From positions 272 to 64,271 of the forward strand of contig JAWDXK010000021.1 in the NCBI GenBank assembly GCA_032477155.1: a stretch of 64,000 nt of DNA, written 5' to 3'. A model generated the notes under the pieces. That model saw nothing but the letters and a program-made list of their open reading frames with translations. It was not told the origin of the DNA and did not search any database. Of the stretch, positions 14,621 to 35,664 are shown one piece after another. How positions within the stretch are numbered: position 1 is the stretch's first letter; each line of letters opens with the position of its first letter. This stretch comes from Dysgonomonas sp. (GTDB lineage Bacteria > Bacteroidota > Bacteroidia > Bacteroidales > Dysgonomonadaceae). The position numbers and the translations under genes were made by a program.

Positions 14621-14644
14621 TGCTATACATTATTATATAATGAC

Positions 14645-15067: not shown

Positions 15068-15073
15068 AGCCGA

Positions 15074-16500: not shown

Positions 16501-16563
16501 CTCGATAGGCGTCGGCCATGCCGAGCCGTAACGGATTTATGTTTCACTTAAAAAATCCGTAGT

Positions 16564-17004: not shown

Positions 17005-17007
17005 AAA

Positions 17008-18261: not shown

Positions 18262-18296
18262 TCAATAAAATTTCAAATCATTAAAAAATTAAGATT

Positions 18297-20306
18297 ATGC
18301 AAAATGAAGATGATCTGCGCGGATTGGCTAAAGTCATGGACTTTATGCGTGCGCTATCCATATTGTTCGTAGTGATACACCTGTATTGGTTTTGCTACGG
18401 GGCAATACATGACCTGGGCTTTAATATCGGCGTAGTCGATAAAATCTTGATGAATTTTAACCGTACCGCCGGACTGTTTACCTCTATCCTGTGGACGAAA
18501 CTTTTTGCGGTGGTTTTTCTCGCGCTTTCCTGCCTCGGTACGCGAGGCGTCAAAGACGAAAAAATTACCTGGGCGAAAATCATTGTCTGCCTGACCGCAG
18601 GCTTTATCCTGTTTTTCTTTAATTGGTGGCTGCTTGCCCTGCCGTTCCCGGCGGAGGCAAATGCAGGGCTTTACGTCCTTACCATGACCGCAGGTTATAT
18701 ACTCCTTCTTATGGGCGGCGTATGGCTTTCCCGATTACTGAAAAATAATATGTTTGACGACGTTTTCAATACCGAAAACGAATCTTTCCAACAGGAAACG
18801 CGGCTACTGGCAAACGACTATTCCGTAAATTTACCTACCCGGTTTTACTATAAAAAGAAATGGAACGAGGGCTGGGTAAACGTGGTAAACCCGTTCAGGG
18901 CGTCGATTGTGTTAGGTACTCCCGGTTCCGGGAAATCCTATGCCATTGTGAACGGCTATATAAAACAGCAAATCGAGAAGGGTTTTAGTATGTATATCTA
19001 TGACTTCAAATTTCCCGACCTCTCGACTATTGCATATAACCACCTGCTGAATAACCGCGAAGGCTACGAAATTACGCCGACGTTCTATGTGATTAACTTC
19101 GACGACCCTTCCCGGTCGCACCGCTGTAATCCTATTAATCCCTCTTTCATGGAGGATATAAGCGACGCTTACGAAAGCAGCTATACGATTATGCTTAACT
19201 TAAACCGTACCTGGGTAAGCAAGCAAGGCGATTTTTTTGTGGAATCTCCGATTATCCTTTTCGCCGCGATTATATGGTACTTGCGGATATACAAGGGTGG
19301 GCAGTATTGCACCTTCCCTCACGCGATAGAGTTTTTGAATAAGCCCTACGAGAAAATTTTTCCTATCCTGACAAGCTACCCGGAACTGGAAAATTACCTT
19401 TCTCCTTTCATGGATGCCTGGCTGGGAGGCGCGGCGGATCAGTTGCAGGGGCAAATAGCGTCGGCAAAGATACCGCTTTCGCGTATGATTTCCCCGGCGC
19501 TTTACTGGGTCATGTCAGCGGACGAGTTTACGCTGGATATTAATAACCCGGCAGAGCCGAAAATTTTAGTCGTAGGTAATAATCCCGACCGTCAGAGCAT
19601 ATACGGGGCGGCGCTGGGGCTGTATAATTCCCGTATAACGAAGCTCATTAATAAGAAGGGACAGCTTAAAAGCAGCGTCATAATCGACGAGTTACCCACG
19701 ATTTACTTTCGCGGGCTTGACAATCTTATAGCCACCGCCCGGAGCAACAAGGTTGCCGTCCTTTTGGGCTTTCAGGACTTTAGCCAGTTAAAGCGGGATT
19801 ACGGCGACAAGGAGGCCGCCGTAGTTATGAACACGGTAGGCAATATCTTTTCCGGGCAGGTCGTAGGCGACACGGCAAAAACTTTGTCTGACCGCTTCGG
19901 GAAAGTCCTTCAAAAGCGGCAGTCCATGACGATAAACCGCAATGATAAATCCACCTCGATAAGTACACAAATGGATAGCTTGATACCCGCGTCGAAAATA
20001 TCAAATCTTACGCAGGGTATGTTTGTCGGAGCGGTGGCGGATAACTTTTCGGAGAGGATAGAGCAAAAGATTTTCCATGCCGAGATAGTGGTGGATAGCC
20101 AGCGAGTAGCCGCCGAAGAAAAGGCGTATAAGAAAATACCCGTCATTGCGGACTTTACCGACGAGCAGGGCGTGGATAGGATGAAGGAGCAGATACAGGA
20201 GAATTACGACCGTATCAAAGCCGAAGCCCGGCAGATTGTCGAGGACGAGATACAGCGTATAAAGGACGATCCCGACCTTTGCCACCTGTTACCGAAAGAA
20301 GAATAA
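18297..20306 (+). CDS. mobC: MobC type IV coupling protein (YWFCY domain)
   Basis: YWFCY motif, Walker A GTPGSGKS, IIDELPT, ATARSNKVAV. Confidence 0.96.
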   Translation: MQNEDDLRGLAKVMDFMRALSILFVVIHLYWFCYGAIHDLGFNIGVVDKILMNFNRTAGLFTSILWTKLFAVVFLALSCLGTRGVKDEKITWAKIIVCLTAGFILFFFNWWLLALPFPAEANAGLYVLTMTAGYILLLMGGVWLSRLLKNNMFDDVFNTENESFQQETRLLANDYSVNLPTRFYYKKKWNEGWVNVVNPFRASIVLGTPGSGKSYAIVNGYIKQQIEKGFSMYIYDFKFPDLSTIAYNHLLNNREGYEITPTFYVINFDDPSRSHRCNPINPSFMEDISDAYESSYTIMLNLNRTWVSKQGDFFVESPIILFAAIIWYLRIYKGGQYCTFPHAIEFLNKPYEKIFPILTSYPELENYLSPFMDAWLGGAADQLQGQIASAKIPLSRMISPALYWVMSADEFTLDINNPAEPKILVVGNNPDRQSIYGAALGLYNSRITKLINKKGQLKSSVIIDELPTIYFRGLDNLIATARSNKVAVLLGFQDFSQLKRDYGDKEAAVVMNTVGNIFSGQVVGDTAKTLSDRFGKVLQKRQSMTINRNDKSTSISTQMDSLIPASKISNLTQGMFVGAVADNFSERIEQKIFHAEIVVDSQRVAAEEKAYKKIPVIADFTDEQGVDRMKEQIQENYDRIKAEARQIVEDEIQRIKDDPDLCHLLPKEE

Positions 20307-20310
20307 AAAC

Positions 20311-20340
20311 AGTAAGAGCCGCAAATTTGCGGCTCTTACT
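20311..20340. terminator. Palindromic terminator between convergent genes
   Basis: Perfect 30-nt palindrome agtaagagccgcaaatttgcggctcttact. Confidence 0.75.
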
Positions 20341-20369
20341 ATGTATAAGTTTTCCTAAAAACTCACTTC

Positions 20370-21155
20370 TCAAAAAGGCAAGTCGTCATTTTCAGTAAAA
20401 GTATTGAGTTTCTTAATATCTGTTGGCTGTTTAAGGTCAAACAAATGAGTATTCTGCAAAATAAAATTTACACCTTTCTCTGAAAGAGAACAAACAGAAT
20501 ATTCATTTCCATTAAAATCGCTATCAATTTTTGTAGTTATAAAACCTTTTGACTTTAATAGACGCATCCCTATACTTGTGGCAGTATCATTAAATCCGGC
20601 TTTGCTCATTCTGCTTCGAAGTTCATATACATTTGCTACTTCCTCGTCGGTATATTGTTCACCAACGATAAAAGCCAAAAGAGATAGTTCATACGGTTGT
20701 AATCCATCCGTTTCCTTTATAGGACTTTCGAGTATCTTCTCTGTCGTTTTTTGGGATTGAAGATAAGCATTAGTTTTCTCTATGATTTTATTTTTTAATA
20801 TCTCAAAATCGCTGGCAGATTCAGTTTTATATCGTATGATATTTTTGTGCCTTACGTCGAACGGAAAGTCTTTTCGTCCTTCATCGCATACCATCACTAC
20901 ATCTTTCTCTAATGCAAAAGCATATCCTAATTCATACCACACATTTGGATTATCCACTGAAATATCTGCAAAACAAATTTCAGCATTTTTAATTCGCAAC
21001 TCAATATCTTCAATCGGAACTTTAACGGCAGGGTCTAAATCCACTCGGTAAGCAGTAAGCCCAACAGACTCTATTGCAGGTTTGTATATATCTTCATATC
21101 GTTTAGTAAATTTCTCATCACTAATAGGTTGTATCACAAAACATTCTTTACTCAT
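20370..21155 (-). CDS. Nucleoside 2-deoxyribosyltransferase/TIR-like domain + winged helix protein, C-terminal DDLPF
   Basis: CFVIQPI...AYRVD...FADISVDNPNVWYELGYA...PFDVRH (NDT-like, Glu retained). wHTH-like LLKSKGFI...SLSEKG. Own -7 TACCTTTG at 21232-21225; AT-rich. Confidence 0.8.
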   Translation of the reverse strand: MSKECFVIQPISDEKFTKRYEDIYKPAIESVGLTAYRVDLDPAVKVPIEDIELRIKNAEICFADISVDNPNVWYELGYAFALEKDVVMVCDEGRKDFPFDVRHKNIIRYKTESASDFEILKNKIIEKTNAYLQSQKTTEKILESPIKETDGLQPYELSLLAFIVGEQYTDEEVANVYELRSRMSKAGFNDTATSIGMRLLKSKGFITTKIDSDFNGNEYSVCSLSEKGVNFILQNTHLFDLKQPTDIKKLNTFTENDDLPF

Positions 21156-21273
21156 ATCGAAAATTTTATTGCTTCAAAAATAATAATTTATAGGGAGCTA
21201 TAATTAATATAGCTATTCTGCTTCCAAAGGTACGAAATGTTGTTGATAATTTCCTTTGAAATCAGATATTTCA

Positions 21274-21345
21274 ACGCCACTCCCGGACACAAGCTGCCGC
21301 CGTCTTAAAACCTTGCAATCAGTCCATTACTTCGGTTTACCTTCG
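21274..21345 (+). promoter_or_regulatory. Putative promoter of DUF3945-topoisomerase operon with third copy of activator-like motif
   Basis: acgccactcccggacacaagctgccgc (21274-21300) is 21/27 to the reverse complement of the tra motif. -7-like TACCTTCG ends at 21345, at the same spacing. Confidence 0.6.
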
Positions 21346-21387
21346 TTCTGCATTAATAGTAATGCAGAATTAAAAACCATTTTCATT

Positions 21388-22938
21388 ATGGCAAAACAAA
21401 GCAAAAAAGACGAGCCTTTAGTGTTACTATCTATCGGCGCGGACGGTAATTTGAAAGTCGTTTCTGGGATGAATCCGAACGGAACGCTTAATACCGTCAA
21501 TCCCACAAAAGAGAACTCGGACAAATTCTTTGAAATTAATTCCAACGGCAACCCGCTGGAAAATTTCATGCAGAAGTTTTCCGGGCAGTATGAAACCCCG
21601 TCGCATATCGGACTGTATGCGGTGGCAGTAAGTGCGGTCGAAAAAATTTCCGCTTTCCTCGACAAAATCATTAAGGTTAATCCTGATGATAAGGTACTCG
21701 ACCCTTATAAGGTTAAGCCCGAAGGCGAGGCGCAGGCACAGGGAAAGTACCAACCGCTCGACCTTAATAAAGTCGATTGGAAGGACGCCGAAAAGCTGGG
21801 TATCTCCGGCGACGATCTGCGCGACGCGCTTAAAGCAATGGCCTACGGCCATAAATCCCCCGGCCTGGTTGATATTAAGGCGAATATCGACGGACAGGAT
21901 ATTACCGTCAAAGCCCGACTGTCCCTGGAGCAACAGCCCGACGGTAGTATCAAAATCCAAACCCACCCCAAACAGGAGCAGCCCGATTTCGATAAGCCGT
22001 TTATGGGCGTGAAGTTTACCGACGAGGATATAAAGCAATTCCAACAGACGGGTAACGGTGGCCGGGTATTCGACCTGGAGCCTGTACCCGGCGGCGAAAA
22101 AGTGCCGTCGCTCGTTTCGCTCGACAAAATGACTAACCGCTTCGAGGCTATGGCAATCGCCGATATTAATATCCCGCAGACGTTGAAGAACGCCCAGCTT
22201 TCCGAAGAACAGCAAGGCAAGTTAAAAGCAGGCGAGGGGGTGCTGGTCGAGGGCATGGATAAGAAGGTAAAGCCCGGCGAAGAGCCTTCCAAAATCGACC
22301 GCATTATCCAGTACAACGCCGCTAACCGCAATTTCGATTTCCGGTTTACCCCGGAACAGCGGGAGCAGCACCGCCAGGATCGGCAGGCAAAGCAGGAACA
22401 GGCCGGAGAAGATAAGCCGCTTAAAGCCCGTAAGGTCGGCGATATTTGGGTACGCCCCATTCAGGGCGGCGTGGAACTTTCCCGCGACCAATTCAAAAAG
22501 CTATGCGAGGGTACGCCTGTTTGGGTGGAAGGTATGCAGAAGCCCCAACCCAAACAGCAGGAAGGAGCGCAGCAGGTCGAAGCCACCGACAAGAAAGGGC
22601 AGAAATACAATGCCTGGGTATGGCCTGACCCGGAGAAAGGCCACGTCCGCCATACCTCAAAACATCCTGACCAGGTGCGGGCGATTGAAGCAAAGCAAGC
22701 CGCGAAAGAGGGTAAGAACGTCAAACCCGCCGACGGCCATAAGACACAGGTAGCCGTGAATAATGACGGTAAAACCAACGAATCGACGAAGCACGCCCAG
22801 GGCAAGGGCGAAGCGTTGAAGTCCGGGCAGACTAATCCCACTGCCAAACAGGACGAGAAGAAGAAGGAGAGCCAGCAGCGCCGACAGTCCCCGGCAGCTC
22901 CGAAGAAAGGCAGAAGTAAAGGCGTAGGGGGCTTGTAA
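21388..22938 (+). CDS. DUF3945/DUF4099-type CTn protein
   Basis: NPLENFMQKF, VDWKDAEKLGI, ARLSL, QTGNGGRV, SLDKMTN, HKTQVAVNNDGKTNE. Likely start is MAKQ at 21388. Confidence 0.85.
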   Translation: MAKQSKKDEPLVLLSIGADGNLKVVSGMNPNGTLNTVNPTKENSDKFFEINSNGNPLENFMQKFSGQYETPSHIGLYAVAVSAVEKISAFLDKIIKVNPDDKVLDPYKVKPEGEAQAQGKYQPLDLNKVDWKDAEKLGISGDDLRDALKAMAYGHKSPGLVDIKANIDGQDITVKARLSLEQQPDGSIKIQTHPKQEQPDFDKPFMGVKFTDEDIKQFQQTGNGGRVFDLEPVPGGEKVPSLVSLDKMTNRFEAMAIADINIPQTLKNAQLSEEQQGKLKAGEGVLVEGMDKKVKPGEEPSKIDRIIQYNAANRNFDFRFTPEQREQHRQDRQAKQEQAGEDKPLKARKVGDIWVRPIQGGVELSRDQFKKLCEGTPVWVEGMQKPQPKQQEGAQQVEATDKKGQKYNAWVWPDPEKGHVRHTSKHPDQVRAIEAKQAAKEGKNVKPADGHKTQVAVNNDGKTNESTKHAQGKGEALKSGQTNPTAKQDEKKKESQQRRQSPAAPKKGRSKGVGGL

Positions 22939-22970
22939 TCCGATTTTTCAAACCACTAAAAAAATCAAAG

Positions 22971-25082
22971 ATGAAAGTTATAATAGCAGAAAAGCCCAGC
23001 GTTGCGCGAGATATTGCCAGCGTTTTAGGCGTAACCAATAAGCAAGACGGATTTATTGAAGGTAACGGCTATGCCGTTACGTGGGCGTTCGGCCACCTGG
23101 TCGGGCTTGCCATGCCCGAAGCCTACGGCTTTACGGGCTTCCAACGTGAAAACCTGCCGATACTCCCGAAGGAGTTTACCCTCATACCCCGCCAGATAAG
23201 GGAAGGCAAAGAGTATAAAGCAGACCCCGGCGCACTCAAACAGCTAAAGGTTATTAAAGACCTGTTCAGCCGCGCCGATGAAATTATAGTAGCTACCGAT
23301 GCCGGACGCGAAGGGGAGTTAATATTTCGCTACATATACAATTATGCAGGATGCCGCACCCCGTTCCGCCGTCTGTGGATAAACTCACTTACCGACCGTG
23401 CTATCCGCGACGGCTTCCAAAGCCTTCGCCCAGGAAGTGATTACGATAACCTTTATTACTCCGCCAAAGCCCGCAGTCAGGCGGATTGGATAGTCGGCAT
23501 AAATGCCTCGCAAGCGCTTTCCATTACGGCAGGGTACGGCGTCTGGTCCCTCGGAAGGGTACAGACCCCAACCCTCGCTATGATCTGCTCGCGCTACCTG
23601 GAGAATAAGGATTTTAAGCCGCAGACTTATTTTCGCTTGAAGGTGCATACAGCGAAGGACGCGACGGCTTTTGCAGTCCTTTCCGCTGATAAATTTGTTA
23701 CCCGGACTATTGCCGAAGAAGTTGCGGCACAGGTCAGAGCCGACGGAGCGGTAACGGTTACAGGCGTGGAACGTAAGGAAGTCCACCAGGAACCGCCCCT
23801 GTTATACGACCTTACCGCCTTGCAGAAGGACGCCAACAAAAGGCACAGCTTTTCGGCGGACAAGACACTGACAATAGCCCAGGCGTTGTATGAAAAAAAG
23901 ATGATTTCATACCCGCGTACAGGTTCTCGTTATATTTCCGCCGACGTACTGGAGGAAATACCGCACCTGGTCGCTACGCTCCGGGCGCACCCGAAATTCG
24001 GGGCGTATATCGACGCCCGGTTTGATACTTCGCTTAATACCCGTCCGGTGGACGATACGAAAGTAACCGACCACCACGCGCTGATTATTACGGAAGATCC
24101 CGCTGTCGGGTTATCCGCAGATGAACAGCTTATTTACGACATGGTTGCCGGGCGTATGCTTGAAGCCTTCGGAGAGCGTTGCACCAAAGAGAACACCGCC
24201 GTAACGTTTGACGCTGGCGGCGCACACTTTGTCGCAAAGGGCAGTATAATGTTACATCCCGGCTGGCGTAATGTTTGGGGAGCCAACCAGGAAGAAACAG
24301 CGGAAGAAGATTTAACCGTACTGCCCGACTTGACGGAAGGCGATAAGCTGGCCGTCCGTGATACGGAGGTGCAGGAGAAGCAGACCAAATCGAAACCCCT
24401 GCACACGGAAGCCTCCCTGCTTTCGGCAATGGAATCGGCAGGCAAAGAGGTGGAGAACGAAGAAGAACGCGAAGCCATGAAGGACGCAGGGATAGGAACA
24501 CCCGCGACAAGGGCGGCGATTATCGAAACCCTGTTTTCCCGTGAGTATATCGTGCGCGAGAAAAAAGCACTTGTACCCACGAATAAAGGGCTTACCGTTT
24601 ACCTGGCTGTCCGGGAGAAGAAGATAGCCGACGTTGCCATGACCGGCGGGTGGGAACACGCCCTTTCTAAAATCGGTACGGGCGAAATGGATGCGGCCAC
24701 CTTCCACCGTTCGATAGAGGTTTACACCTCGCAGATCACATCCGAATTACTGGATATGCCTTTCGAGCGGCAGGATAACCGCCAGTCCTGCCCTTGCCCC
24801 AAATGCAACAGCGGGAACGTAATTATTTACGCAAAGGTAGCCAAGTGTAATAATGAAGCCTGCGGGCTAACTGTATGGCGCACCATTGCGAAAAAGGAGT
24901 TATCCGATACGCAGATTACGTCGCTGCTAATGAATGGCACGACCGGGATTATTAAGGGATTTATAAGCAGTAAGACGGGCAGTACGTTCGAGGCCGCTGT
25001 GAAATTCGATACCGATTATAAAACCGTTTTCGAGTTCGAGAAGAAGAAAGGCGGTAAAGGCAAGAAGGGTAAATCCAGGTAA
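22971..25082 (+). CDS. topB: Type IA DNA topoisomerase III (CTnDOT Exc-like)
   Basis: IAEKPSVA, ATDAGREGELI, GRVQTPT, catalytic SYPRT, DHHA, GIGTPATRA and C-terminal Zn ribbon. Confidence 0.95.
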   Translation: MKVIIAEKPSVARDIASVLGVTNKQDGFIEGNGYAVTWAFGHLVGLAMPEAYGFTGFQRENLPILPKEFTLIPRQIREGKEYKADPGALKQLKVIKDLFSRADEIIVATDAGREGELIFRYIYNYAGCRTPFRRLWINSLTDRAIRDGFQSLRPGSDYDNLYYSAKARSQADWIVGINASQALSITAGYGVWSLGRVQTPTLAMICSRYLENKDFKPQTYFRLKVHTAKDATAFAVLSADKFVTRTIAEEVAAQVRADGAVTVTGVERKEVHQEPPLLYDLTALQKDANKRHSFSADKTLTIAQALYEKKMISYPRTGSRYISADVLEEIPHLVATLRAHPKFGAYIDARFDTSLNTRPVDDTKVTDHHALIITEDPAVGLSADEQLIYDMVAGRMLEAFGERCTKENTAVTFDAGGAHFVAKGSIMLHPGWRNVWGANQEETAEEDLTVLPDLTEGDKLAVRDTEVQEKQTKSKPLHTEASLLSAMESAGKEVENEEEREAMKDAGIGTPATRAAIIETLFSREYIVREKKALVPTNKGLTVYLAVREKKIADVAMTGGWEHALSKIGTGEMDAATFHRSIEVYTSQITSELLDMPFERQDNRQSCPCPKCNSGNVIIYAKVAKCNNEACGLTVWRTIAKKELSDTQITSLLMNGTTGIIKGFISSKTGSTFEAAVKFDTDYKTVFEFEKKKGGKGKKGKSR

Positions 25083-25262: not shown

Positions 25263-25589
25263 TTACTGCCTGAAATCTTCGTCTGTTTCCTCTCCCGGCT
25301 CCCCTTTTTCAAAATGCGACTGTATAAACGATTCTACGTCGCTTTCCCTGTAATAGGTCTTATGATAGATAGTTTGGTAGGGCAGTTCGCCCGAAGAACG
25401 GTAACGCTGTAAAGTACGCTTGCTGACATGGAGCAATTCGCATACGTCCTGATTATCCAACAATCTTTCGCCATCCAAAAAATTATACCTTCCCGACATC
25501 TGTTCCATATTATTATCCAGGCTGTCAAAACGCCCCATAAACCGCTCGAACCATTCCTGCATCCAGTTCATTAAATCATTATCTCCCAT
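25263..25589 (-). CDS. HTH_17 excisionase-like protein
   Basis: LDGERLLDNQDVCELLHVSKRTLQRYRSSGELPY, HKTYYRESDV. Confidence 0.9.
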   Translation of the reverse strand: MGDNDLMNWMQEWFERFMGRFDSLDNNMEQMSGRYNFLDGERLLDNQDVCELLHVSKRTLQRYRSSGELPYQTIYHKTYYRESDVESFIQSHFEKGEPGEETDEDFRQ

Positions 25590-25601
25590 ATCGCAAGCCT
25601 C

Positions 25602-25979
25602 CTATTTATTCACTTTGTTTATACTACCTGCTGTGCGACGCTGCTGGTATTCCTGATGTGCCCGGAGCAAATCGGCCTCCTGCCTGTACTTACTTACGAC
25701 TACCCGCCCGACGATAAGGCGCTGTATCTCCCGGAGCGTATAGCGTGTCCTGCCGCCCCGGATAGAATAGGTTATTTCGCCATTGGAGCGCAAGCGTTGG
25801 AGTGTCCGCAGGCTTATCTCCAAAATTTCGGCGGCTTCATCGTTGCCTATCCATATCTCCGACGGATCTGGAGGCGGCACAGCCTCTTTTTCCGATTGCG
25901 CTTTGATATAGTTATATACCCGGTCGATTTTTCGCACCAATACTTTATAGGCTTCCGAATCAATAGTTATTATTTTCAT
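25602..25979 (-). CDS. HTH_17 excisionase-like protein
   Basis: WIGNDEAAEILEISLRTLQRLRSNGEITYS..GGRTRY. Confidence 0.88.
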   Translation of the reverse strand: MKIITIDSEAYKVLVRKIDRVYNYIKAQSEKEAVPPPDPSEIWIGNDEAAEILEISLRTLQRLRSNGEITYSIRGGRTRYTLREIQRLIVGRVVVSKYRQEADLLRAHQEYQQRRTAGSINKVNK

Positions 25980-26030: not shown

Positions 26031-26056
26031 CTGCCAACCTGTTACCAAGTTGGCAG
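26031..26056 (-). promoter_or_regulatory. Inverted repeat upstream of xis-like operon, candidate RteC site
   Basis: ctgccaacctg-ttac-caagttggcag (10/11 arms) just upstream of imperfect -7 GAACTTTG (26010-26003). Confidence 0.5.
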
Positions 26057-26128: not shown

Positions 26129-26235
26129 CGGTATGTTTTCAGGGAAAATAAAAAAACTACCAAGTTGGTATAAACTTGATAGTTTTTCAAAATGCAGAAC
26201 TGCGATTAAATACCTTTATTGCAGCAATATAGTGT

Positions 26236-26745
26236 TTAATTAAGGGTATAACGAATCTTTGTTACCCCTTTATATTCTTCCGATTTTTCGCATTTAACAT
26301 TTACGTCGAAAGATTTGCCTAAAAAACGGATGCCGTCGCCGAGCAGTACGGGAACAATATAAAGGTTCAGTTCGTCCAACAGCCCATTGTTGAGCAGGAA
26401 TGTTATCAGATTACCGCCACCGATAACCGATATATCTCCGGCAGTTTCTTTCTTCAATGCGGAAATCTGTTCAAACTGATCGTTGAGCAGGAATTGCAGG
26501 TTTTTATTTGCGAGGGCAGAAAAATCATGGTGGGAGATAACATAGGTATTTTTGTAAGGCCAGATTCCGGCACATTGTTCAAAAATAGCCTCATAGGTGT
26601 TAAAGCCAGCCAAGAGTATTTCGGATGTTTGGTGTATCTCCGATATTTCCTTTGCGAGTTCTCCGGGTATCCAGCCCGTTTCTCCGTCCGTGTGCGCAAT
26701 ATAACCGTCCAGCGATATTGCGACGTGTGCCTTAATTTTACTCAT
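26236..26745 (-). CDS. Dihydrofolate reductase/RibD C-terminal-domain family protein
   Basis: AISLDGYIA, LAGFNTY, VIGGGNLI, LDELNLYIVPVLLGDGIR. Real start is MSKIK at 26745. Confidence 0.88.
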   Translation of the reverse strand: MSKIKAHVAISLDGYIAHTDGETGWIPGELAKEISEIHQTSEILLAGFNTYEAIFEQCAGIWPYKNTYVISHHDFSALANKNLQFLLNDQFEQISALKKETAGDISVIGGGNLITFLLNNGLLDELNLYIVPVLLGDGIRFLGKSFDVNVKCEKSEEYKGVTKIRYTLN

Positions 26746-26767
26746 ATTGTTATCGTATTTATATCGG

Positions 26768-26938
26768 AGAACGCCGGAGCAAAAAAGTAGCGTGGAACCT
26801 ACGCTGCTCCGACACGAGGTACTGGCATACCTTAGAGAAGAAACAGGCAAGCCCACGCTATACGATGATAGCATGAACATTGCACAGTTTGCCTCTTCTC
26901 TATTTGAAAATTGCCAGTTTTCGTGTCGAGGACGTTCT
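26768..26938 (-). ncRNA. Highly structured 5' leader or ncRNA upstream of DHFR-like gene
   Basis: Nested pairings cgacacga/tcgtgtcg, actggca/tgccagt, tagagaaga/tcttctcta, ggcaa/ttgcc, plus a hairpin with U6. -7 TATCTTTG at 27008-27001. Confidence 0.55.
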
Positions 26939-27070
26939 GCGAACGTTATGTTATATATCTATGCAGAATAAATCTGCGTTTTCATTCTATTTCCGTTTTG
27001 CAAAGATAGTGAATGTCCTTGAAACAATCCTTGTTTTTAATAGCTTTGTGCTAAAAGCCTCCTTACTAAT

Positions 27071-27397
27071 CTATGGCTGTTGTTTATAAACAGGATTATT
27101 AGGCAATAACTCTCTATACCATTTCTCTAATTTGTTATCCTTAAACAAGAACAAATAGAATTCTTCTTCATTTTGAGGATAATTTCTATAAGATAACACT
27201 TCTACCTTGACACCATTTTCTATTCGTTTTTCTGCGATAGTATATTCTTTCCCTAAGATTGATGTTACTTGTTCTTTTGACATACCTAATTCAAGTTTAT
27301 TCATCTTAGAACTGGTCATAACGGATACTGTTGAACAAGCAGTCATAAGCAAAATCATAAAAGAAAAAAGCATTTTTTTAATCGTTTTCATAAGCAA
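27071..27397 (-). CDS. Small lipoprotein, SmpA/OmlA-like fold
   Basis: Lipobox MTAC, KLELGMSKEQVTSILG, LFKDNKLEKW. Own -7 TATCTTTG at 27430-27423. Confidence 0.75.
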   Translation of the reverse strand: MLMKTIKKMLFSFMILLMTACSTVSVMTSSKMNKLELGMSKEQVTSILGKEYTIAEKRIENGVKVEVLSYRNYPQNEEEFYLFLFKDNKLEKWYRELLPNNPVYKQQP

Positions 27398-27467: not shown

Positions 27468-28319
27468 CTACTCTGAATCGTCCTTTTCCATTCTCCTGAT
27501 AAGTGCCTCTATCAGTTTGTTGAGGAAAGGTGTTCGGTCTTTTTTGCGACTTTTGATAGCAACATAAGTCCTGTAGTAATCTCCCAAGTCAATATCGAAA
27601 TTGACCTCTATGAAGTTCATTATCTCCTTCACATCTACATTTCCGTTGTTTATGGCTCCGCTGTCCCTCATGGAGTAACCTAATTCGATAGCATCGGATT
27701 TTGAGCCAGTCCATTTCAAATTGTTGTTCGGTAATAACTCCCGGCTCTTTTTGATAATGACTTGTTTCTCTATGCTATGCTTTTTCTTGTTCAGGTATAT
27801 CCTTAACATTTCGTTGCAGATAATCTTCGCCACCTTATAATCATACCCGGTTGAGAACAGCGGATCGAGTATGTATTTCGCACTATCTACACAAAGTTGA
27901 GGACTTGATTTTCCCCTTATAAAGTATTGCTCGTCTAAATAGGTCGAGTTGGCTCTGTAATATTGGTGGAAATCCAAATTGCGCTCAAAGAAATACGTCA
28001 GGCTCATTAGTTCCTTATCGTAATACTCGCTTTGGGTTTCATTACTGCCAATAGGACGTTTTAACTCAATGTTATGTATCTTATTGAAATACAACAATAA
28101 GCCCAACACTTCGGGTTTCATTTCTTTGAAAAATGCGATTTCTTCCTCCGGGGTTATTGACTTCAAAACGAGAAAATAGTCCCGAAGTTCAGATAAACAA
28201 TCTTCCAGATATTTAATCATTCTGACAGAATCCCCTATGGGAATGTCGCAACCTTCCAAATCAATGCTTTGCAACTCTGTTTGGATTTTCGCTGATAGAC
28301 GTGTGTAAAAATCTCTCAT
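27468..28319 (-). CDS. rteC: RteC-family conjugation/excision regulator
   Basis: EEIAFFKEMKP, FHQYYRANSTYLDEQYFIRG, FSTGYDYKVAKII, LKWTGSKSDAIEL, IKSRKKDRTPFL. Confidence 0.93.
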   Translation of the reverse strand: MRDFYTRLSAKIQTELQSIDLEGCDIPIGDSVRMIKYLEDCLSELRDYFLVLKSITPEEEIAFFKEMKPEVLGLLLYFNKIHNIELKRPIGSNETQSEYYDKELMSLTYFFERNLDFHQYYRANSTYLDEQYFIRGKSSPQLCVDSAKYILDPLFSTGYDYKVAKIICNEMLRIYLNKKKHSIEKQVIIKKSRELLPNNNLKWTGSKSDAIELGYSMRDSGAINNGNVDVKEIMNFIEVNFDIDLGDYYRTYVAIKSRKKDRTPFLNKLIEALIRRMEKDDSE

Positions 28320-28326
28320 AATCTTC

Positions 28327-28998
28327 TTATTTTATTATTTCTCCATCTACTAAGTGAATGATGCGATCCGATTGTCTGGCAAAATCGTCGTCATGGGTAA
28401 CGGTTAAAATCGTATATCCCTTTTCGGCTGTCAGTTCCCGGAACAGGTCTAAGACAATACGGGTGTTGTTCGTATCTAAATTTCCAGTCGGTTCGTCGCC
28501 GATAATAATTGCAGGCTCATTAATCAATGCCCTTGCAATGGCGACACGCTGTTGCTGTCCGCCCGAAAGAAGCGATGCCCGTTTTTGTGCCTGTTCCCGC
28601 ACATCCAACAACCCAAGCAAGTCAATAGCTTTGCTTTCGATTTCCTCTTTGGAATACTTACCTTGTTTCAACGCCGGAAGCATTACATTTTGAAGCACAG
28701 TAAAATCAGGTAGCAGGTAATGAAACTGAAAAATGAATCCGATATTACTGTTCCTGAAACCAGACAGCCATTTGTTACCCTTGCCTTTTATCTTGTTCCC
28801 GTTTATTTTTATACTCCCCTCAAAATCGCTATCCATTGTCGAGAGCAGGTACAATAGGGTTGATTTTCCGCTTCCCGACTTACCTGTTATCGAAGTCAGT
28901 TTCCCCTTTTCGATGCTGAAATTCAGATTTTTCAGCACCCAAAAATCCGTAGGGGTGTAAAAATGCTTGTTCAGATTTTCCACTTTCAGTATTTCCAT
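28327..28998 (-). CDS. ABC transporter ATP-binding protein (LolD/MacB-like)
   Basis: GKSGSGKST, GFIFQFHYLL, LSGGQQQRVAIARAL, DEPTGNLD. Confidence 0.95.
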   Translation of the reverse strand: MEILKVENLNKHFYTPTDFWVLKNLNFSIEKGKLTSITGKSGSGKSTLLYLLSTMDSDFEGSIKINGNKIKGKGNKWLSGFRNSNIGFIFQFHYLLPDFTVLQNVMLPALKQGKYSKEEIESKAIDLLGLLDVREQAQKRASLLSGGQQQRVAIARALINEPAIIIGDEPTGNLDTNNTRIVLDLFRELTAEKGYTILTVTHDDDFARQSDRIIHLVDGEIIK

Positions 28999-29002
28999 AT
29001 TC

Positions 29003-30265
29003 CTATCCTCTTATGATGTAAACAGGGTCTATGCGGGCAGCCTTTCGCGCCGGGATGTAGCCCGACAGGAAAGCAGTCAGAATCCCGAACGACAAGCCCG
29101 ATATATAAAATGCTTTATTAAAGCTGATCGGCAGATGATTGATTGAAGAAAACAGTTCGCTTTCATAAGGGATAAGAGATACCCCGTATGAAATAAGGAA
29201 TCCGAATAACAGTCCCAGCAACGACCCGACGATGCCGATTACAAAGGACTGGATAAGGATAATTCCCCGTACATCATCGTTGGAGAATCCCATAGCTTTT
29301 AGTATGGCTATCTCTTTCATTTTCTCGTATATCATCATATTGAGTATGTTGTATATACCGAATCCGGCAACCAGCAACAGGCAGATAGCGACACAATAGA
29401 CGACCATGTTTTGCATGGCTTCGTTCTCAAAAGCAAGGGCGTTGTCTTTCATCCAGTCGGACGTACTGCACCCGTATTTTGCCCTGTATTCATCCGATAC
29501 GGCAAAAGCCATATCCTTATCGTGCAGTTTGATTTTAATATCGGTTATATACGAAAAGGGAACGGATAGTATCTTCTGAACGGTCGCCAGACTTGCGTAG
29601 CATTGTTCTATATCAATTTCGGGAATACCTGTTTTGAAAATTCCGATAACCGTCATGGTCAGGTATTCTCCCTTTTGTGTGGTAACGGTAATTTTATCGC
29701 CCGAACGGACATTGATTTTCTTTGCCAATCCCGAAGCCATGACCAAACTGTTAGGCGTAGTATTCAGTTCGGTAAAGCTGCCTTCCCTTAATTTGGTAGC
29801 CAGATTGAGCAGGACGTTTTCATCATCGTAGTTAATCCCGGTAATCTGCCCGTTGAAGAGGGACAGCCCGACTTCGTAAAACACCTGCGTTTTAACCGAC
29901 CCTGAAACCGCTGAAACTCGCTCATCCTGCCGTATTTCCTGTATAACCTGCAATCCGTCTTTTATATTCGGCAATACCGCTTTGGGCTTGACGTGGTGCG
30001 TATAATTTTGTGTGTTCGGACTGATTTTATCCAAGATTGTATGTTGGGCGATTTCCGGCTCGTTATACAGGCGCACATGAGGTGTTTGTTCCAACGTAAT
30101 TTCCTGCACATATCCGTTCAGTCCTTTCACGTATGCGAGCAGGAATATAAATACCGTAACCCCGAAAACAACGCCTGCCGTTGCTATTATGGATTGCTTC
30201 TGCCTTGTTCTCATTTGGGAAAAGGCTACGGAAGCGGCTAACCGTATATCTTTAATTACGCTCAT
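29003..30265 (-). CDS. ABC transporter permease (LolC/E, MacB/FtsX family)
   Basis: 1 TM + large periplasmic loop + 3 TM; KEIAILKAMGF, PARKAARIDPV. Confidence 0.93.
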   Translation of the reverse strand: MSVIKDIRLAASVAFSQMRTRQKQSIIATAGVVFGVTVFIFLLAYVKGLNGYVQEITLEQTPHVRLYNEPEIAQHTILDKISPNTQNYTHHVKPKAVLPNIKDGLQVIQEIRQDERVSAVSGSVKTQVFYEVGLSLFNGQITGINYDDENVLLNLATKLREGSFTELNTTPNSLVMASGLAKKINVRSGDKITVTTQKGEYLTMTVIGIFKTGIPEIDIEQCYASLATVQKILSVPFSYITDIKIKLHDKDMAFAVSDEYRAKYGCSTSDWMKDNALAFENEAMQNMVVYCVAICLLLVAGFGIYNILNMMIYEKMKEIAILKAMGFSNDDVRGIILIQSFVIGIVGSLLGLLFGFLISYGVSLIPYESELFSSINHLPISFNKAFYISGLSFGILTAFLSGYIPARKAARIDPVYIIRG

Positions 30266-31350
30266 TGCCGGGCAGGTTTTAGAATCATATCCCCGGTAAC
30301 AACGCCCGATTTAACTTCAACCAAATCGTTTATCCTGATTCCTGTTTTCACCGGAATCATTTTATCATCGGCTTGTAGTACGCTATCCCCTTTGAACAGG
30401 TAATCGAAAGGAATCATCGTCGCTTTGATGTTCTCACGTATGATAATACAGGCTTCTACGGAAGATTGGGGATAGAAGAAATCGGAACCGGATATAACGG
30501 CATCTACTTTGAAATACCTTGATTCTTTCCGCATCACCGGGTCAATCTTTGAAATGCAGGCTTCAAACTGCCTGTCGGGATAGGTATTCGATTCAAAATA
30601 TACTTTTTGACCGATAGTGATTTTATTTATATCCCGTTCGTCAATGGATAATTCCAGTTTGAAAGCGTTATCCACTCCGACCATTAATACAGGGGATTCG
30701 CTTTCCGCTATTTCTCCCTGCTCTTTCAGAATGGAATAAACTTTGCCCGATATATTGCTTCTTATCGCATTGTCGTTGTATTGCCGGGAAATATCTGCCA
30801 GTTGCAGTTCGCTTGCGAGTAGTTTGTCATTCAGCCTGCTTTTTGTAGCTGTATATTGCTCCTGTAAAGTGCTCACTTCTGCCAAACTCCTTTCTGCCGC
30901 AAGCTGTCTATCTTCCGCTTCCTTTGGCGACACGGCTTTATCGACGGCTAATTTCTGGTAGCGTTCCGCATTCGTCTTATCCTGCCTGTATTGCTGTTCG
31001 GCTATATCTATTTTAGTCCGAATCTCGTTCAGTATGGCGGAATTTCCGCTTGCGTTCTCTCTGGCAATAGCAACCTGACCTGCCGCCAACCGGATTTTTT
31101 CGGTATCGTCCGTACTCCCCATGATAACCAATAGGTCGCCTGCCGACACCCTGTCGCCCTCTTTTACCAATATTTGCAGGATAGGTGCTGTCTTAGGCGA
31201 TTTAAGGAAATAGTATTGTATCGGATAGACCTCTCCCGAAGCATATACAGCTTCGTTTATGGTATGTTCGACTACTGTATATGGTTCTCCATTCTGTTTG
31301 CAGGCGCAAAAGAGGATTGCAAGTATAAAGATTGGAATACTGTTTTTCAT
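30262..31350 (-). CDS. Efflux periplasmic adaptor (MFP) lipoprotein
   Basis: Lipobox FCAC, VKEGDRVSAGD lipoyl half, helical hairpin, IRSNISGKV. Likely start is MKNS at 31350. Confidence 0.9.
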   Translation of the reverse strand: MKNSIPIFILAILFCACKQNGEPYTVVEHTINEAVYASGEVYPIQYYFLKSPKTAPILQILVKEGDRVSAGDLLVIMGSTDDTEKIRLAAGQVAIARENASGNSAILNEIRTKIDIAEQQYRQDKTNAERYQKLAVDKAVSPKEAEDRQLAAERSLAEVSTLQEQYTATKSRLNDKLLASELQLADISRQYNDNAIRSNISGKVYSILKEQGEIAESESPVLMVGVDNAFKLELSIDERDINKITIGQKVYFESNTYPDRQFEACISKIDPVMRKESRYFKVDAVISGSDFFYPQSSVEACIIIRENIKATMIPFDYLFKGDSVLQADDKMIPVKTGIRINDLVEVKSGVVTGDMILKPARQ

Positions 31351-31354
31351 TCTC

Positions 31355-32650
31355 TTATTTGCTTTGTAAATAGATGATTTCGACATAGTGTTTCAAGTAG
31401 TTAGTTATTGCCTGATTGTATTTATTCTGTTCGTCCATTAAATCCTGTTGAATCTGCTTGAGTTGTAGCATATCAATAATCCCACTCTCTATTTTCTGAA
31501 TACTCAACCGTTCGTTTTCTTCGGCAAGGCGTAATTTTTCTTCCTGTATATGGAGAGTTTCCCAGCCGCTTTGAAGATTTATAGCGTGTTGCATAAAGGC
31601 TCTACGCTGACTATTCTCATAGTGCTGAAAATCTTGTTTTGCTTGTGCAACGATTATTTTCCCCTTTTGTGATTGCCGGACATTAGACATGGAGAATAAA
31701 GGTATGCTTAACCGTACCCCGACGAACGACGAAGTATGCCACGCGGAGGATTGAGTAATATATTTGCTCTTTTCTCCGAAACCGAGTTGTCCGTAACTTC
31801 CGACAAGTTCCAGTTTGGGATAAAAAGCGGATAAGCGGGCTTTGTTATCCCTTTCTGCAATATCTATTTTCAACCGTTCGGCTTCATAGTCCGGCAAGCG
31901 GTTACTCTCAAAACAGCCTATTTCGGGGGCGGGGATCTGATTATTCTGCTGAACGGTTAAAACGGAATCCAACGGGTAGCCCATCCAAAATTTCAAATCC
32001 GCAAGACCGCTTTCTACTTTATAGCCTGCCTGCAAATAGATTTCTTCCTGATTTTTTAATAGACCTAAAGACTGGTTGAAAGAAATTTGATCCAACAGAC
32101 CTTCATTAAACATCTTTTTGACTAATTCATGCACCTGCTTTTGGTTGTCATAGCGTTGCCGGGCAGTCGCAAATTCATTGCTGTATTGTTGAACCAAATA
32201 GAACGATATAGATACATTCCTCGATAAAAGTTTTTCAACCGAAGCGTGTTCATGTCGCTTTGCCTGTTCCCGTAAAGCCGACAATTTGATTTCCGACCAT
32301 ATTTCGGGATTGATAAGGTTTAGTTTCACATCTATTCCATAGCACCCTGCATGGGTGGTTGTGGTCGGTACTGTAATGAATGTTCCGGGAGATTGCCCTA
32401 CCAACTCTCCGGGCAGGGTTTGTACAGGAACTTTCCAATAATAATCCAAATTGGCACTGGCAGATATTTCGGGAAACAGTCTGCCTTGAACGGCTTTGCG
32501 TTCCATGCTCTGTATCTCCGTCCCGTATCGGCTCGAAAGTAGTTGCTTATTGTTTTCCAGCGCATAAGACAAACATTTGTCTAAATTCCAGTCTTGCGCC
32601 ATGCAAGATAAAGCAGGGAAAAGCGTTAATATTAAAAGTGCAGCTTTCAT
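31355..32650 (-). CDS. TolC-family outer membrane efflux protein
   Basis: WNLDKCLSYALENN, FYPKLEL, VGVRLSIPLF and helical repeats; signal peptide. Confidence 0.9.
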   Translation of the reverse strand: MKAALLILTLFPALSCMAQDWNLDKCLSYALENNKQLLSSRYGTEIQSMERKAVQGRLFPEISASANLDYYWKVPVQTLPGELVGQSPGTFITVPTTTTHAGCYGIDVKLNLINPEIWSEIKLSALREQAKRHEHASVEKLLSRNVSISFYLVQQYSNEFATARQRYDNQKQVHELVKKMFNEGLLDQISFNQSLGLLKNQEEIYLQAGYKVESGLADLKFWMGYPLDSVLTVQQNNQIPAPEIGCFESNRLPDYEAERLKIDIAERDNKARLSAFYPKLELVGSYGQLGFGEKSKYITQSSAWHTSSFVGVRLSIPLFSMSNVRQSQKGKIIVAQAKQDFQHYENSQRRAFMQHAINLQSGWETLHIQEEKLRLAEENERLSIQKIESGIIDMLQLKQIQQDLMDEQNKYNQAITNYLKHYVEIIYLQSK

Positions 32651-32703
32651 TTATTTATTCTGTTATTTATACTGCAAAATAAAGGGAGGCTGACGGGAAC
32701 AGG

Positions 32704-32746
32704 AAAAGTATTTGACCATTGGTAGAAACCAACTGACAACTGGTAG
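32704..32746 (-). promoter_or_regulatory. LytTR-type direct-repeat box upstream of tolC operon
   Basis: tgaccattggtag (32713) and tgacaactggtag (32734), 21-bp period. Near-identical copy at 35622-35664. Confidence 0.75.
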
Positions 32747-32804
32747 CTAATCAATTAGGAGAATACTTTATCTTTGTACTGAAGAATTAAAGAGGATAAA
32801 AGAT

Positions 32805-33833
32805 ATGAAGCTAAGTTTCTTAAAACATTATAATTTCTACATCGGGATAATATGGATAATACTATTCATAGCCCTTTGGATGCAATTCTCATCGAGAGCC
32901 CCCATCGGGGAATCCCTTTTGTTTACTTTCTGCTTTACGGTTTGCTCTTTTGCGGTAAGTACCTTTATCAGCCGTAAAATCGTTCCGAAAGCACTTGCCA
33001 ACAAAAAACTGAACCCGTTTATATTTCAGTTTATTCTGGGTGTCCTGTTTTTGGCTTTTCTACTGGAGTTAATCGTAGAGTTGTTTTATATCCTTGAAAG
33101 CAACGGGGTCTTTAGTGTTTCTCCGTTGATTTCCGACATACACGACCCGTTCATTATCGGGATTTTGGGTATGCTTCCGACCTCTATAATGGTTATTGCA
33201 GGATTTTGCGGACTTGAACTGTTCCGCGCCCATGCCGTACAGGAAAAGGAGCGATTGGAAGACCAGTTGAACTTTCTGAAAAGTCAGGTAAACCCGCATC
33301 TTACGTTCAATGTATTGAACCATATTCATATCCTTATTTATAAAGACGTGGAACTGGCGGACGAACTTCTTTTGCGCTTTTCGGACGTTTTGCGCTATCA
33401 ACTGTATGAATGCAATAACGATGTTGTCTTGCTGGAATCCGATCTAAAGTATGTAAAGGATATTGTCGAGATTGAAAAAATGAGGTGGGGCAATGAATTG
33501 GACGTTAATGCCAAATTCGAGATTGAAGATAGTACCGCAGCTATACGTCCTTTAATGCTTATCCCTTTCATAGAGAACGCATTTAAGCACGTTTCCCGTT
33601 TGCCCGATAAGAAAGGATATGTAAAAATAGACTTCTCCCAAAAGGGTAAATCCGTTCGCCTGATTGTGGAGAACTCAAAGTCGGCGACACCACCCCGGAA
33701 AAACGAACATTCGGGTTTGGGATTAGTGAATACAAAAAAACGGTTGGAAATATCTTATCCCGAAAAGTATCAGTTGGATATTCGGGAAACAGATAATATA
33801 TACAAAATAGACCTCCAAATTACTTTAGAATAA
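32805..33833 (+). CDS. LytS-type sensor histidine kinase
   Basis: About 4 TM helices with no large periplasmic domain; LKSQVNPH, LRYQLYE, PFIENAFKH, SGLGLVN. Perfect -7 at 32769-32776. Confidence 0.93.
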   Translation: MKLSFLKHYNFYIGIIWIILFIALWMQFSSRAPIGESLLFTFCFTVCSFAVSTFISRKIVPKALANKKLNPFIFQFILGVLFLAFLLELIVELFYILESNGVFSVSPLISDIHDPFIIGILGMLPTSIMVIAGFCGLELFRAHAVQEKERLEDQLNFLKSQVNPHLTFNVLNHIHILIYKDVELADELLLRFSDVLRYQLYECNNDVVLLESDLKYVKDIVEIEKMRWGNELDVNAKFEIEDSTAAIRPLMLIPFIENAFKHVSRLPDKKGYVKIDFSQKGKSVRLIVENSKSATPPRKNEHSGLGLVNTKKRLEISYPEKYQLDIRETDNIYKIDLQITLE

Positions 33834-33838
33834 CATGT

Positions 33839-34600
33839 ATGGCAGAAATAATTTCACAACAGACCGATAGTATTCCTCTAAAATGCCTTGTGGTCGATGA
33901 TGAACCAATGGCGCGGGAGGGAATGGCTGACTTAATATCTAAAGTCGAGTTTCTGAATCTGGCGGGCACTTGTGCGTCTGCTATGGAAGCAAGGGAATTT
34001 ATAGACCGCAACCCTGTCGATCTCCTTTTCCTCGATATAAATATGCCTTACCTCTCCGGGTTGGAATTTCTCGAATCGCTTGATAATGCACCGCTAACAG
34101 TCCTGACAACGGCATATCCGCAGTACGCAATGGACGGCTATCGGTTTCAGGTAGTGGACTACCTGCTGAAACCTATCGCGTTTAAGCGTTTTTATCAGTC
34201 AGCCATAAATGCCCAGCAAACTTATCGTTTGCACGAACTGGCGAAGAAAGAGGGCAAGAGCAAGAAGCAATCCGTCTTATACGTCAAACAGGGCGATGCT
34301 TACCAACGGATTGTATGGGAGGATATTTTGTATATCGAGGGGATGCAGAATTATGTGAAAATCCACTTTCCGGGAGAAACTAAAATCATTCTCCAGACGA
34401 TTACATCATTGGAAGAAATGCTCCCCAAAGAGGAATTTTTCAGAATACACAAGTCCTACTTGGTAAACGTCAATCATATAGATTCTATCGAGGGTGGACG
34501 GATTTTCATAGGCAAAAACGAACTGCCTATTTCGCGGCATCGGAAAAATGAATTGCTCAATACGGTGGTTTTCCAAAACTTACTAAGCAAGAATAAATAA
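33839..34600 (+). CDS. LytTR-family response regulator
   Basis: VVDDEPMA, FLDINMP, DYLLKP receiver; YIEGMQNYV, FFRIHKSYLVN LytTR domain. Confidence 0.95.
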   Translation: MAEIISQQTDSIPLKCLVVDDEPMAREGMADLISKVEFLNLAGTCASAMEAREFIDRNPVDLLFLDINMPYLSGLEFLESLDNAPLTVLTTAYPQYAMDGYRFQVVDYLLKPIAFKRFYQSAINAQQTYRLHELAKKEGKSKKQSVLYVKQGDAYQRIVWEDILYIEGMQNYVKIHFPGETKIILQTITSLEEMLPKEEFFRIHKSYLVNVNHIDSIEGGRIFIGKNELPISRHRKNELLNTVVFQNLLSKNK

Positions 34601-34603
34601 CAC

Positions 34604-34636
34604 AAAAAAGCCTGCTCCGATTGAAGCAGGCTTTTT
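34604..34636. terminator. Bidirectional terminator
   Basis: aaaaaagcctgct-ccgattga-agcaggcttttt between convergent genes. Confidence 0.8.
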
Positions 34637-34655
34637 GACAGATAGATTGTAAACT

Positions 34656-35570
34656 CTAAAATCCGTATTTATATCCGATTGAGAAGTAGCCGGAGGTCTT
34701 AAACGAAGGGTCGAACTCACGCCCGAACCAACGGAAATAATCTTTTATGGAGCGATTCACAACAACGGCATCCCGATACCAGTTTCCGCCACCGGTTATT
34801 TGAATAGATGATTGTTTCCCTATTCTAAAGTCAGCCTGCAAGCCGGATTTCATCGACATTGTACCGAATAGCTTTGATTTGCCGTTTACATCCATTACAG
34901 CCGACATACCGTCCAATTCAAAACCGATAAGCCTTATTTTCAGACGGTCATTCAGTTGCATAGCCCCGGATATTTCCATATTTTCGAGCATACTTATTTT
35001 TACCTCATACTTGCCGTCGAGTTGCCAGTTTACATATCCCATTGGTAAAGCCATAGGTGTACCGTAACTATTGGTAACACCGACACCTATACCAATATCG
35101 AGATTATCCAGTACATGATATACAAAGACCGCCCCGCCGCTTCCTAATATGCTTTTAGCGGTTATCTGCGAAGGATTGGAGTAGATACCTCCACCCAGAA
35201 CGGCTAACAAAGACCACTTTGGACTGATAGGCGTTAGATAGGTCAGATTTACCGATGTATTGAGAATCTTGTCAGGGTGCAAGTCGGTTGAAATGCTTTT
35301 GTTGTTGAACATAGCATAGGCAGCATCGACAGATACCGCAAGCATCTTAATCCGACCGTTATCGTACTGTTTATACTTCAACGGGAGTGAGAAACCGCCT
35401 TGCATTTTCAGCATATCGCCGGAGCCTCCGGTCTTTACATTATTCTCGTCCTTAAACGACGAAGGGGTAGCATATTCCGTCTTAAAATATACTTGTGCAT
35501 GAGATTCTGGCGAACATACCAGCACGAACACCAATAGCATGGAGCAACTTAACAAGGTTTTCATTTGCAT
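34656..35570 (-). CDS. Outer membrane beta-barrel protein (DUF6268-like)
   Basis: Signal peptide, amphipathic strands, C-terminal IGYKYGF. Start is 35570 or 35564. Confidence 0.75.
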   Translation of the reverse strand: MQMKTLLSCSMLLVFVLVCSPESHAQVYFKTEYATPSSFKDENNVKTGGSGDMLKMQGGFSLPLKYKQYDNGRIKMLAVSVDAAYAMFNNKSISTDLHPDKILNTSVNLTYLTPISPKWSLLAVLGGGIYSNPSQITAKSILGSGGAVFVYHVLDNLDIGIGVGVTNSYGTPMALPMGYVNWQLDGKYEVKISMLENMEISGAMQLNDRLKIRLIGFELDGMSAVMDVNGKSKLFGTMSMKSGLQADFRIGKQSSIQITGGGNWYRDAVVVNRSIKDYFRWFGREFDPSFKTSGYFSIGYKYGF

Positions 35571-35621
35571 ACTTTTTATATTGTTTGTGATGCAAAGATC
35601 AGGTTGCTTTGCCACTCTATA

Positions 35622-35664
35622 AAAAGTATTTGACCACTGGTAGAAACTAAATGACTATTGGTAT
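35622..35664 (-). promoter_or_regulatory. Second LytTR-type direct-repeat box, upstream of beta-barrel gene
   Basis: tgaccactggtag (35631) and tgactattggtat (35652), 21-bp period, 38 bp from -7-like GATCTTTG as at tolC. Confidence 0.75.

Follow-up and report, generated by a model that had tools for sequence, protein, structure and literature searches.

We analysed a 64,000-nucleotide (nt) stretch of Dysgonomonas sp. DNA (assembly GCA_032477155.1, contig JAWDXK010000021.1, here C21; this whole stretch is the window) in which a long-form rteC gene directly follows an operon for a TolC-type exporter, at the right end of a CTnDOT-like integrative and conjugative element (ICE). The locus, at 27468-35664, is best read as an instance of a general arrangement that places long-form rteC at the tail of a cargo operon. 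Judging from the sequence, a LytS/LytTR two-component system very probably controls the exporter through a conserved predicted operator, and rteC very probably rides on the exporter transcript. We give an even chance to the fuller reading, in which rteC would be the last cistron of a LytTR-activated transcript and the inducer of the exporter would also raise RteC and excision. In the CTnDOT, CTnERL, CTn341 and CTn214 elements, a cascade leads from tetQ-rteA-rteB through rteC to xis2c-xis2d-orf3-exc and on to tra/mob. According to the accessible parts of the CTnDOT papers, RteC activates the excision operon (PMC3809561, PMC1976400, PMC5812530), and rteC expressed from a heterologous promoter suffices to switch on the excision genes (PMC3809561, PMC1976400).

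The LytTR module and the exporter operon

The original prediction had described tolC, membrane fusion protein (MFP), permease, ATPase and rteC genes in one orientation, with a divergent LytS kinase, a LytTR regulator and a beta-barrel gene beyond them, in a window without tetQ, rteA or rteB. This description was borne out. Every gene of the locus is an intact open reading frame (ORF) at its predicted position, Pfam and NCBIfam profile searches assigned the corresponding families (Table 1), and the successive intergenic gaps from tolC to rteC are 4, -4, 4 and 7 nt with the MFP start set to ATG 31350. The absence of tetQ, rteA and rteB orthologues extends to the whole genome, where only generic elongation factor G, kinase and sigma54-activator paralogues (25-45% identity) were found. 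The kinase has four predicted N-terminal transmembrane segments without a large periplasmic domain, as judged by hydropathy, and its H-box, N and G motifs are all present; so are the Walker A, LSGGQ and DEPT motifs of the ATPase. RteC gave a structure model with a predicted local distance difference test score (pLDDT) of 89 and no match at E≤0.001 in a fold search. The DUF6268 gene lies on the minus strand, convergent with lytR, and probably starts at ATG 35570 or 35564; its model is all-beta (pLDDT 87.5), and since the fold search returned only generic barrels (FadL, autotransporter, OmpG; TM-score ≤0.5) we assign it no function. With a third-codon GC of 0.43-0.52, the genes for exporter, regulator and barrel are closer to the ICE than to the flanking host genes (0.26-0.35).

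Direct repeats of the unit CCAnnnGTCA with a period of 21 lie upstream of tolC, within the 154-nt tolC-lytS intergenic region, and again upstream of DUF6268. At up to two mismatches these are the only two matches in the window, both at module promoters, against 0.16 expected; genome-wide there are three exact matches, the additional one lying upstream of a paralogous lytS/lytR-DUF6268 module on contig C5. Both the repeat and its spacing are kept in the orthologous modules L074, L075, G178 and G067. Published LytTR operators have a like geometry, among them, in Bacteroides, repeats of 11 bp set apart by 11-bp spacers (PMC6193735, accessible part). This motif suggests that LytTR would bind at both sites, and DUF6268 thus appears as a second member of a putative LytTR regulon beside the exporter operon. 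In the window, no copy of the operator precedes rteC, xis, tra or mob, which leaves read-through as the only route for any LytTR control of rteC. The C5 module (G000:C5:667-3446) encodes a LytR 59% identical to that of the window and carries a related operator, making cross-talk with the ICE module possible; a further lytS-lytR paralogue is found on C22 of the same genome.

As in other systems of the LytS-YehU family, a PF06580 kinase is paired with a REC-LytTR regulator, and tandem repeats with a period of 21-22 lie just 5' of a weak promoter (PMC6193735, Tables 2-3, in the part accessible). The CCAnnnGTCA consensus and a regulon of DUF6268 and a TolC/ABC exporter set the module apart, and we found no description of either. 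The exporter resembles MacAB-TolC and LolCDE-like tripartite systems in combining TolC, an MFP, a MacB_PCD/FtsX permease and an ATPase in one operon, but its permease and ATPase are separate genes and all its NCBIfam equivalog matches are below cut-off. Efflux is assumed here, and the exporter could equally well carry a lipopeptide, a lipid or a lipoprotein. The signal would most likely be a substrate of the exporter that is lipophilic or a peptide, a weak hint that comes from the nonribosomal peptide synthetase (NRPS) and acyltransferase neighbours of orthologous modules and from the co-regulated barrel; the fold searches narrowed it no further.

In the mechanism that we propose, a membrane-level signal would activate the four-segment LytS kinase, and phosphorylated LytTR would bind the tandem repeats at two weak promoters and turn on both DUF6268 and the tolC-MFP-permease-ATPase transcript. 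Having neither promoter space nor an operator of its own, rteC would be the fifth cistron of that transcript, and RteC would in turn switch on the insulated xis promoter as it does in CTnDOT, so that excision and transfer increase. The arrangement may have arisen when a portable sense-and-export cassette entered a variable slot directly 5' of rteC, the resulting layout then being retained in one ICE lineage.

The junction between the exporter operon and rteC

That rteC has no intergenic promoter space, as was originally claimed, agrees with the 7-nt gap and with the minus strand from tolC to rteC, where no operator, consensus -7 box or terminator-like hairpin was found. The missing box counts for little in this argument, since 1.2 such boxes are expected by chance in the 4.4-kb stretch and the module promoters are themselves non-consensus. 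A sigma70 promoter scan, whose model is unsuited to Bacteroidota, found 21 sites versus 27.5 in shuffles. DNA homology to L005, the locus with the closest rteC (88% amino acid identity), stops 17 nt 5' of the rteC ATG, and thus no ancestral rteC promoter appears to have been kept. We also compared four runs of DNA contigs with the window. One X1 contig covers 27829-28758 at ~85% identity, with 139 differences and 0 gaps, and bridges the ATPase-rteC junction. The preserved junction, the short gap and the lack of an operator or consensus promoter of its own are what point to rteC being carried on the exporter transcript.

Alternatively, a non-consensus promoter within the 3' portion of the ATPase gene could serve rteC independently of LytTR, its activator being RteC, Xis or a factor that comes from the host or acts in trans. 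Precedents exist in CTnDOT, whose rteC has its own RteB-activated promoter (PMC5812530, PMC3809561) and whose regulators influence cryptic elements in trans (PMC1976400), as far as the accessible parts of these papers go. The gene order of CTn214 (rteB, a dihydrofolate reductase (DHFR)-like gene, then rteC) likewise leaves 239 nt upstream of rteC, and a consensus scan misses activated promoters. However, the sequence 5' of rteC is not conserved beyond 17 nt among close rteC relatives, so that any ancestral promoter would have disappeared when the junction formed; L074 has an almost identical ATPase end with no rteC behind it; and the genome has no rteB orthologue. We therefore regard a separate rteC promoter as improbable, and favour rteC as a cistron of the exporter operon.

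Cargo turnover upstream of rteC and recurrence of the pairing

The survey of long-form rteC comprised 102 loci, namely, 80 regions around full-length hits among 166 PF09357 matches, 18 of 19 further loci, three loci from the genome itself and the window, and 74 distinct loci were left after the removal of duplicates, of short rteC and of loci that lack an ORF upstream; kin among them are not independent, the ORF caller is crude, and short CTnDOT-type RteC is excluded by design. tetQ, rteA or rteB lay upstream in 0 of the 102 loci, 90 of which have at least 3 kb of upstream sequence. The upstream gene was co-oriented with rteC in 69/74 loci, against a baseline of 74.5% of 1507 ORFs of the genome, with a gap of at most 40 nt in 13 of the 69. 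A consensus -7 box was present within 250 nt before rteC in 13/74 loci, versus a 38% baseline. The upstream genes were diverse and included P-type metal ATPases, ArsA, ArsP, AraC, LytTR (four loci), PAP2, TolC, and ABC and major facilitator superfamily (MFS) transporters. A Bacteroides-centred replicate (30 loci, 27 distinct, of which three are one tRNA-synthetase context) gave co-orientation in 25/27 and gaps of at most 40 nt in 15/25. Turnover in the slot is fast: identical contexts having been removed beforehand, the genes upstream are unrelated in 46 of the 51 pairs whose rteC genes share at least 80% identity.

On these counts, neither the 7-nt gap nor the missing tetQ-rteAB can be called exceptional, and both candidates were rejected. 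The swapped sensory input of the original prediction stands as regards the exporter, whose control is supported by the conserved LytTR-type operator, but the idea of a one-off swap away from tetQ-rteAB found no support. Likewise, the turnover of the slot and a portable module that is often found without rteC speak against a stand-alone undescribed system. A broader interpretation, which we put forward tentatively and regard as rather less than probable, is that long-form rteC acts as a promoter-less master switch kept at the tail of whichever inducible cargo operon (metal, arsenic, AraC/LytTR or exporter) an element carries.

Some upstream contexts deserve separate mention. Other LytS/LytTR pairs lie directly upstream of and co-oriented with rteC in L004 (G000:C10:65110-67886, same genome), L176, L188 and L219, an order that recalls rteA-rteB-rteC. 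At L245, L246, L247 and L267, in several Bacteroides genomes, a class II (Asn-like) tRNA synthetase gene precedes rteC at a distance of 18-39 nt, and in two plasmid records (L239 and L240) it follows an AraC/helix-turn-helix gene that ends long arrays of type VI secretion system-type immunity genes.

The pairing of module and rteC recurs. Five further contigs (92536, 51412, 20059, 18712 and 10852 bases) appear to carry the permease, DUF6268 and an rteC 81-91% identical to that of the window, a co-occurrence that we infer from equal longest-contig sizes across protein lists. In G067, an orthologous module (38-74% identity) lies 149 nt before an rteC of 42% identity, and a quick IQ-TREE version of the rteC tree assigns this rteC and that of the window to separate starred clades, where in each case the sister has different cargo, indicating that the G067 pairing is independent. 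Close permease orthologues (E≤1e-90) were found in 2/169 other genomes of the family and 0/400 of the order, and matches at E≤1e-105 in 2/400 of the phylum (40% identity). An rteC was seen at 0/80 metagenome permease loci, most of which are distant (~40%) or short, and viral contigs contained no relatives of rteC or tolC.

A dedicated co-evolved circuit, in which exporter, sensor and RteC form one fixed system unique to this module, would be consistent with recurrence in one lineage and again in G067. Yet the two pairings use rteC genes of different well-supported clades and the module is common without rteC, so that as an exclusive system this circuit is largely refuted and, in our estimate, very improbable.

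Several observations weigh against a functional coupling of the exporter to rteC. An X9 contig departs from the window sequence at 28325, and eight other module-bearing contigs longer than 12 kb have no matching rteC among the matches listed. The module occurs at 86-93% nucleotide identity without an adjacent rteC in another ICE slot in L074, whose homology to the window stops at the ATPase end, and again without adjacent rteC in L076 and in G178, where it precedes a lipid A acyltransferase-family gene; L005 has other cargo upstream despite its close rteC. Across loci, a terminator-like hairpin precedes rteC in 13/69 co-oriented cases. Even at 3.5-7 kb upstream, co-orientation amounts to 78%, so that the bias may in part reflect a strand preference of cargo in general. 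The window RteC shares only its C-terminal domain with characterised short RteC. Finally, no integrase was found on C21, which holds 0 of the 41 PF00589 and 0 of the 32 PF17293 matches of the genome, the contig breaking at a repeat on the tra side.

These points could be accommodated if the cassette were an incidental passenger that landed in a recombination hotspot by rteC, any read-through having no real effect on mobility because distal expression is weak, another factor limits RteC or the element is defective. The fast turnover of cargo, the homology breaks at L005 and L074, the reach of the strand bias, the C21 contig without an integrase match and the rteC genes 18 nt behind a housekeeping tRNA synthetase gene would all fit. 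The junction, however, is gap-free at ~15% divergence, and module and rteC are paired again on five contigs and, as a separate event, in G067. Across loci, rteC is preceded by a consensus promoter less often than the baseline, and tra, mob, topB and xis are intact ORFs. We consider an incidental passenger unlikely, though a serious contender, and retain the tail-of-operon layout as the best reading.

In L074 (1-11592), an NRPS condensation-domain gene comes before the module, and phosphopantetheinyl transferase and MFS genes come after it; the divergent promoter is interrupted by an insertion, with the operator present on both sides.

The surrounding element and its relation to CTnDOT

The remainder of the ICE matches TraG/J/L/M/O/Q, DUF4133/4134/4138/4141 and Bacteroid_MobA/B/C above cut-off. 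The genome carries four rteC genes. The left end of C21 is a 96-bp repeat common to many contig ends, and the tra side is the integrase side in the C10 element of the genome. A search for an att site over 35661-36045 gave no second copy in the genome or the loci.

The palindrome 5' of the xis promoter is a candidate RteC site, and similar sites occur in L005, L018, L021 and L164. A search for an RteC box common to xis and tra gave no support for one: the only perfect match in the window is the one at xis, with no second copy at tra or mob, and the two matches at up to two mismatches are at chance level. A second terminator-like hairpin lies 3' of rteC at 26785 and, with that at 26151-26188, would stop read-through, so that xis would need an activated promoter of its own.

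Between rteC and xis, the element at 26771-27008 is a ~230-nt sequence with a long hairpin (about -81 kcal/mol), found within 1.5 kb 3' of rteC in 21/102 loci, the window included. In the 20 other loci it lies 28-75 nt after the rteC stop and, in 18 of them, before a RibD_C/DHFR-like gene; three more copies exist in the same genome. Rfam gave 0 matches at E≤0.05 over window positions 1-42000, this element included, which is a candidate for a new leader or riboswitch-like RNA. The BamE-like gene has its own TATCTTTG box at 27430, is absent from L005 and is skipped by an X10 contig. Just outside the ICE, window positions 37995-41402 (+) encode a WGR-ankyrin-repeat protein of 1135 amino acids with a predicted C-terminal propeller-like region.

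Table 1. Features of the exporter-rteC locus and of the surrounding element (window coordinates)
Feature	Position	Strand	Basis and remarks
ICE core: tra region, mobABC, DUF4099/3945 gene, topoisomerase III (Exc-like)	3591..25082		Pfam/NCBIfam
Two Xis-like HTH_17 genes (excision operon analogue)	25263..25979	-	PF12728
Palindrome just 5' of xis promoter, candidate RteC site	26031..26056	-	sequence; putative role
Strong hairpin and U run	26151..26188	-	would insulate xis genes from read-through
RibD_C/DHFR-like gene	26236..26880	-	PF01872; likely start near 26745
Candidate long-hairpin leader or RNA before RibD_C gene	26771..27008	-	conserved; own -7 box, terminator-like end
BamE-like lipoprotein gene, small, low-GC, inserted after rteC	27071..27397	-	profile match
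rteC, long form, 283 aa	27468..28319	-	PF09357, E 2e-79; ~190-aa helical N-terminal part, C-terminal DNA-binding part
ABC (ATP-binding cassette) ATPase, LolD/MacB-like	28327..28998	-	Pfam/NCBIfam; stop 7 nt before rteC ATG
MacB/LolC-E-type permease	29003..30265	-	PF12704 (MacB_PCD), PF02687 (FtsX); TIGR02212 below cut-off
MFP (HlyD-type), periplasmic adaptor	30262..31350	-	PF13437, TIGR01730
TolC-family outer-membrane channel (OEP/TolC), operon gene 1	31355..32650	-	PF02321
Degenerate Bacteroidota -7 box of putative tolC promoter	32675..32682	-	sequence; ends 38 nt after operator
LytTR-type direct-repeat operator before tolC, period 21	32713..32743	-	motif scan
Consensus -7 box (TAnnTTTG) before lytS	32769..32776	+	sequence
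LytS/YehU-type histidine kinase	32805..33833	+	PF06580; hydropathy
LytTR response regulator	33839..34600	+	PF00072 (REC), PF04397 (LytTR)
Terminator-like hairpin between converging lytR and DUF6268	34605..34636		hairpin in sequence
DUF6268 outer-membrane beta-barrel	34656..35570	-	PF19783; ORF call from GTG 35615
Second LytTR-type operator, before DUF6268	35631..35661	-	motif scan; same 38-nt spacing to degenerate -7 box

With the CTnDOT family the element shares a PF09357 RteC, two Xis-like helix-turn-helix genes, topoisomerase III, mobABC, a CTnDOT-type tra region and a cargo-linked two-component system upstream of rteC. It differs in lacking tetQ, rteA and rteB, its sensor being of the LytS/LytTR and not the sigma54-type RteA/RteB kind, in an rteC that appears to be a cargo-operon cistron rather than under its own promoter, in a topB that is convergent and outside the xis operon, and in having no RteR match in Rfam. 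RteC of CTn214 has 201 amino acids against 283 in the window, and only the C-terminal ~82 align (41%). That RteC-like genes reside on tetQ-less or metal-resistance islands is already known: CTn1-4-bt of B. thetaiotaomicron are cryptic CTnDOT-like elements in a host without tetQ-rteAB (PMC1976400), and RteC-like genes were reported on heavy-metal CTnDOT-like islands of Mucilaginibacter (PMC6316836). Unlike what we propose here, neither source, in its accessible part, mentions co-transcription of rteC with cargo or its induction by a cargo signal. Within the literature covered, mostly other than subscription papers, we found no description of rteC co-transcribed with cargo operons or of a DUF6268/LytTR regulon.

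Many CTnDOT-like elements of Bacteroidota lack tetQ, and the worked-out case of induction that we found is CTnDOT itself. If coupling had no effect, the locus would remain a new LytTR regulon of exporter and DUF6268 on an ICE, of modest interest. If read-through from cargo drives rteC, metals, arsenic, glycans and envelope-active compounds could trigger transfer, and transfer triggers in gut and environmental communities would be predictable from gene order. Should the master-switch reading be true, each element would excise and spread at just the time when its cargo is of use, the tetracycline induction of CTnDOT would be a special case of a plug-in sensory design, and the present locus, with its defined LytTR operator and 7-nt junction, would be its cleanest test case.

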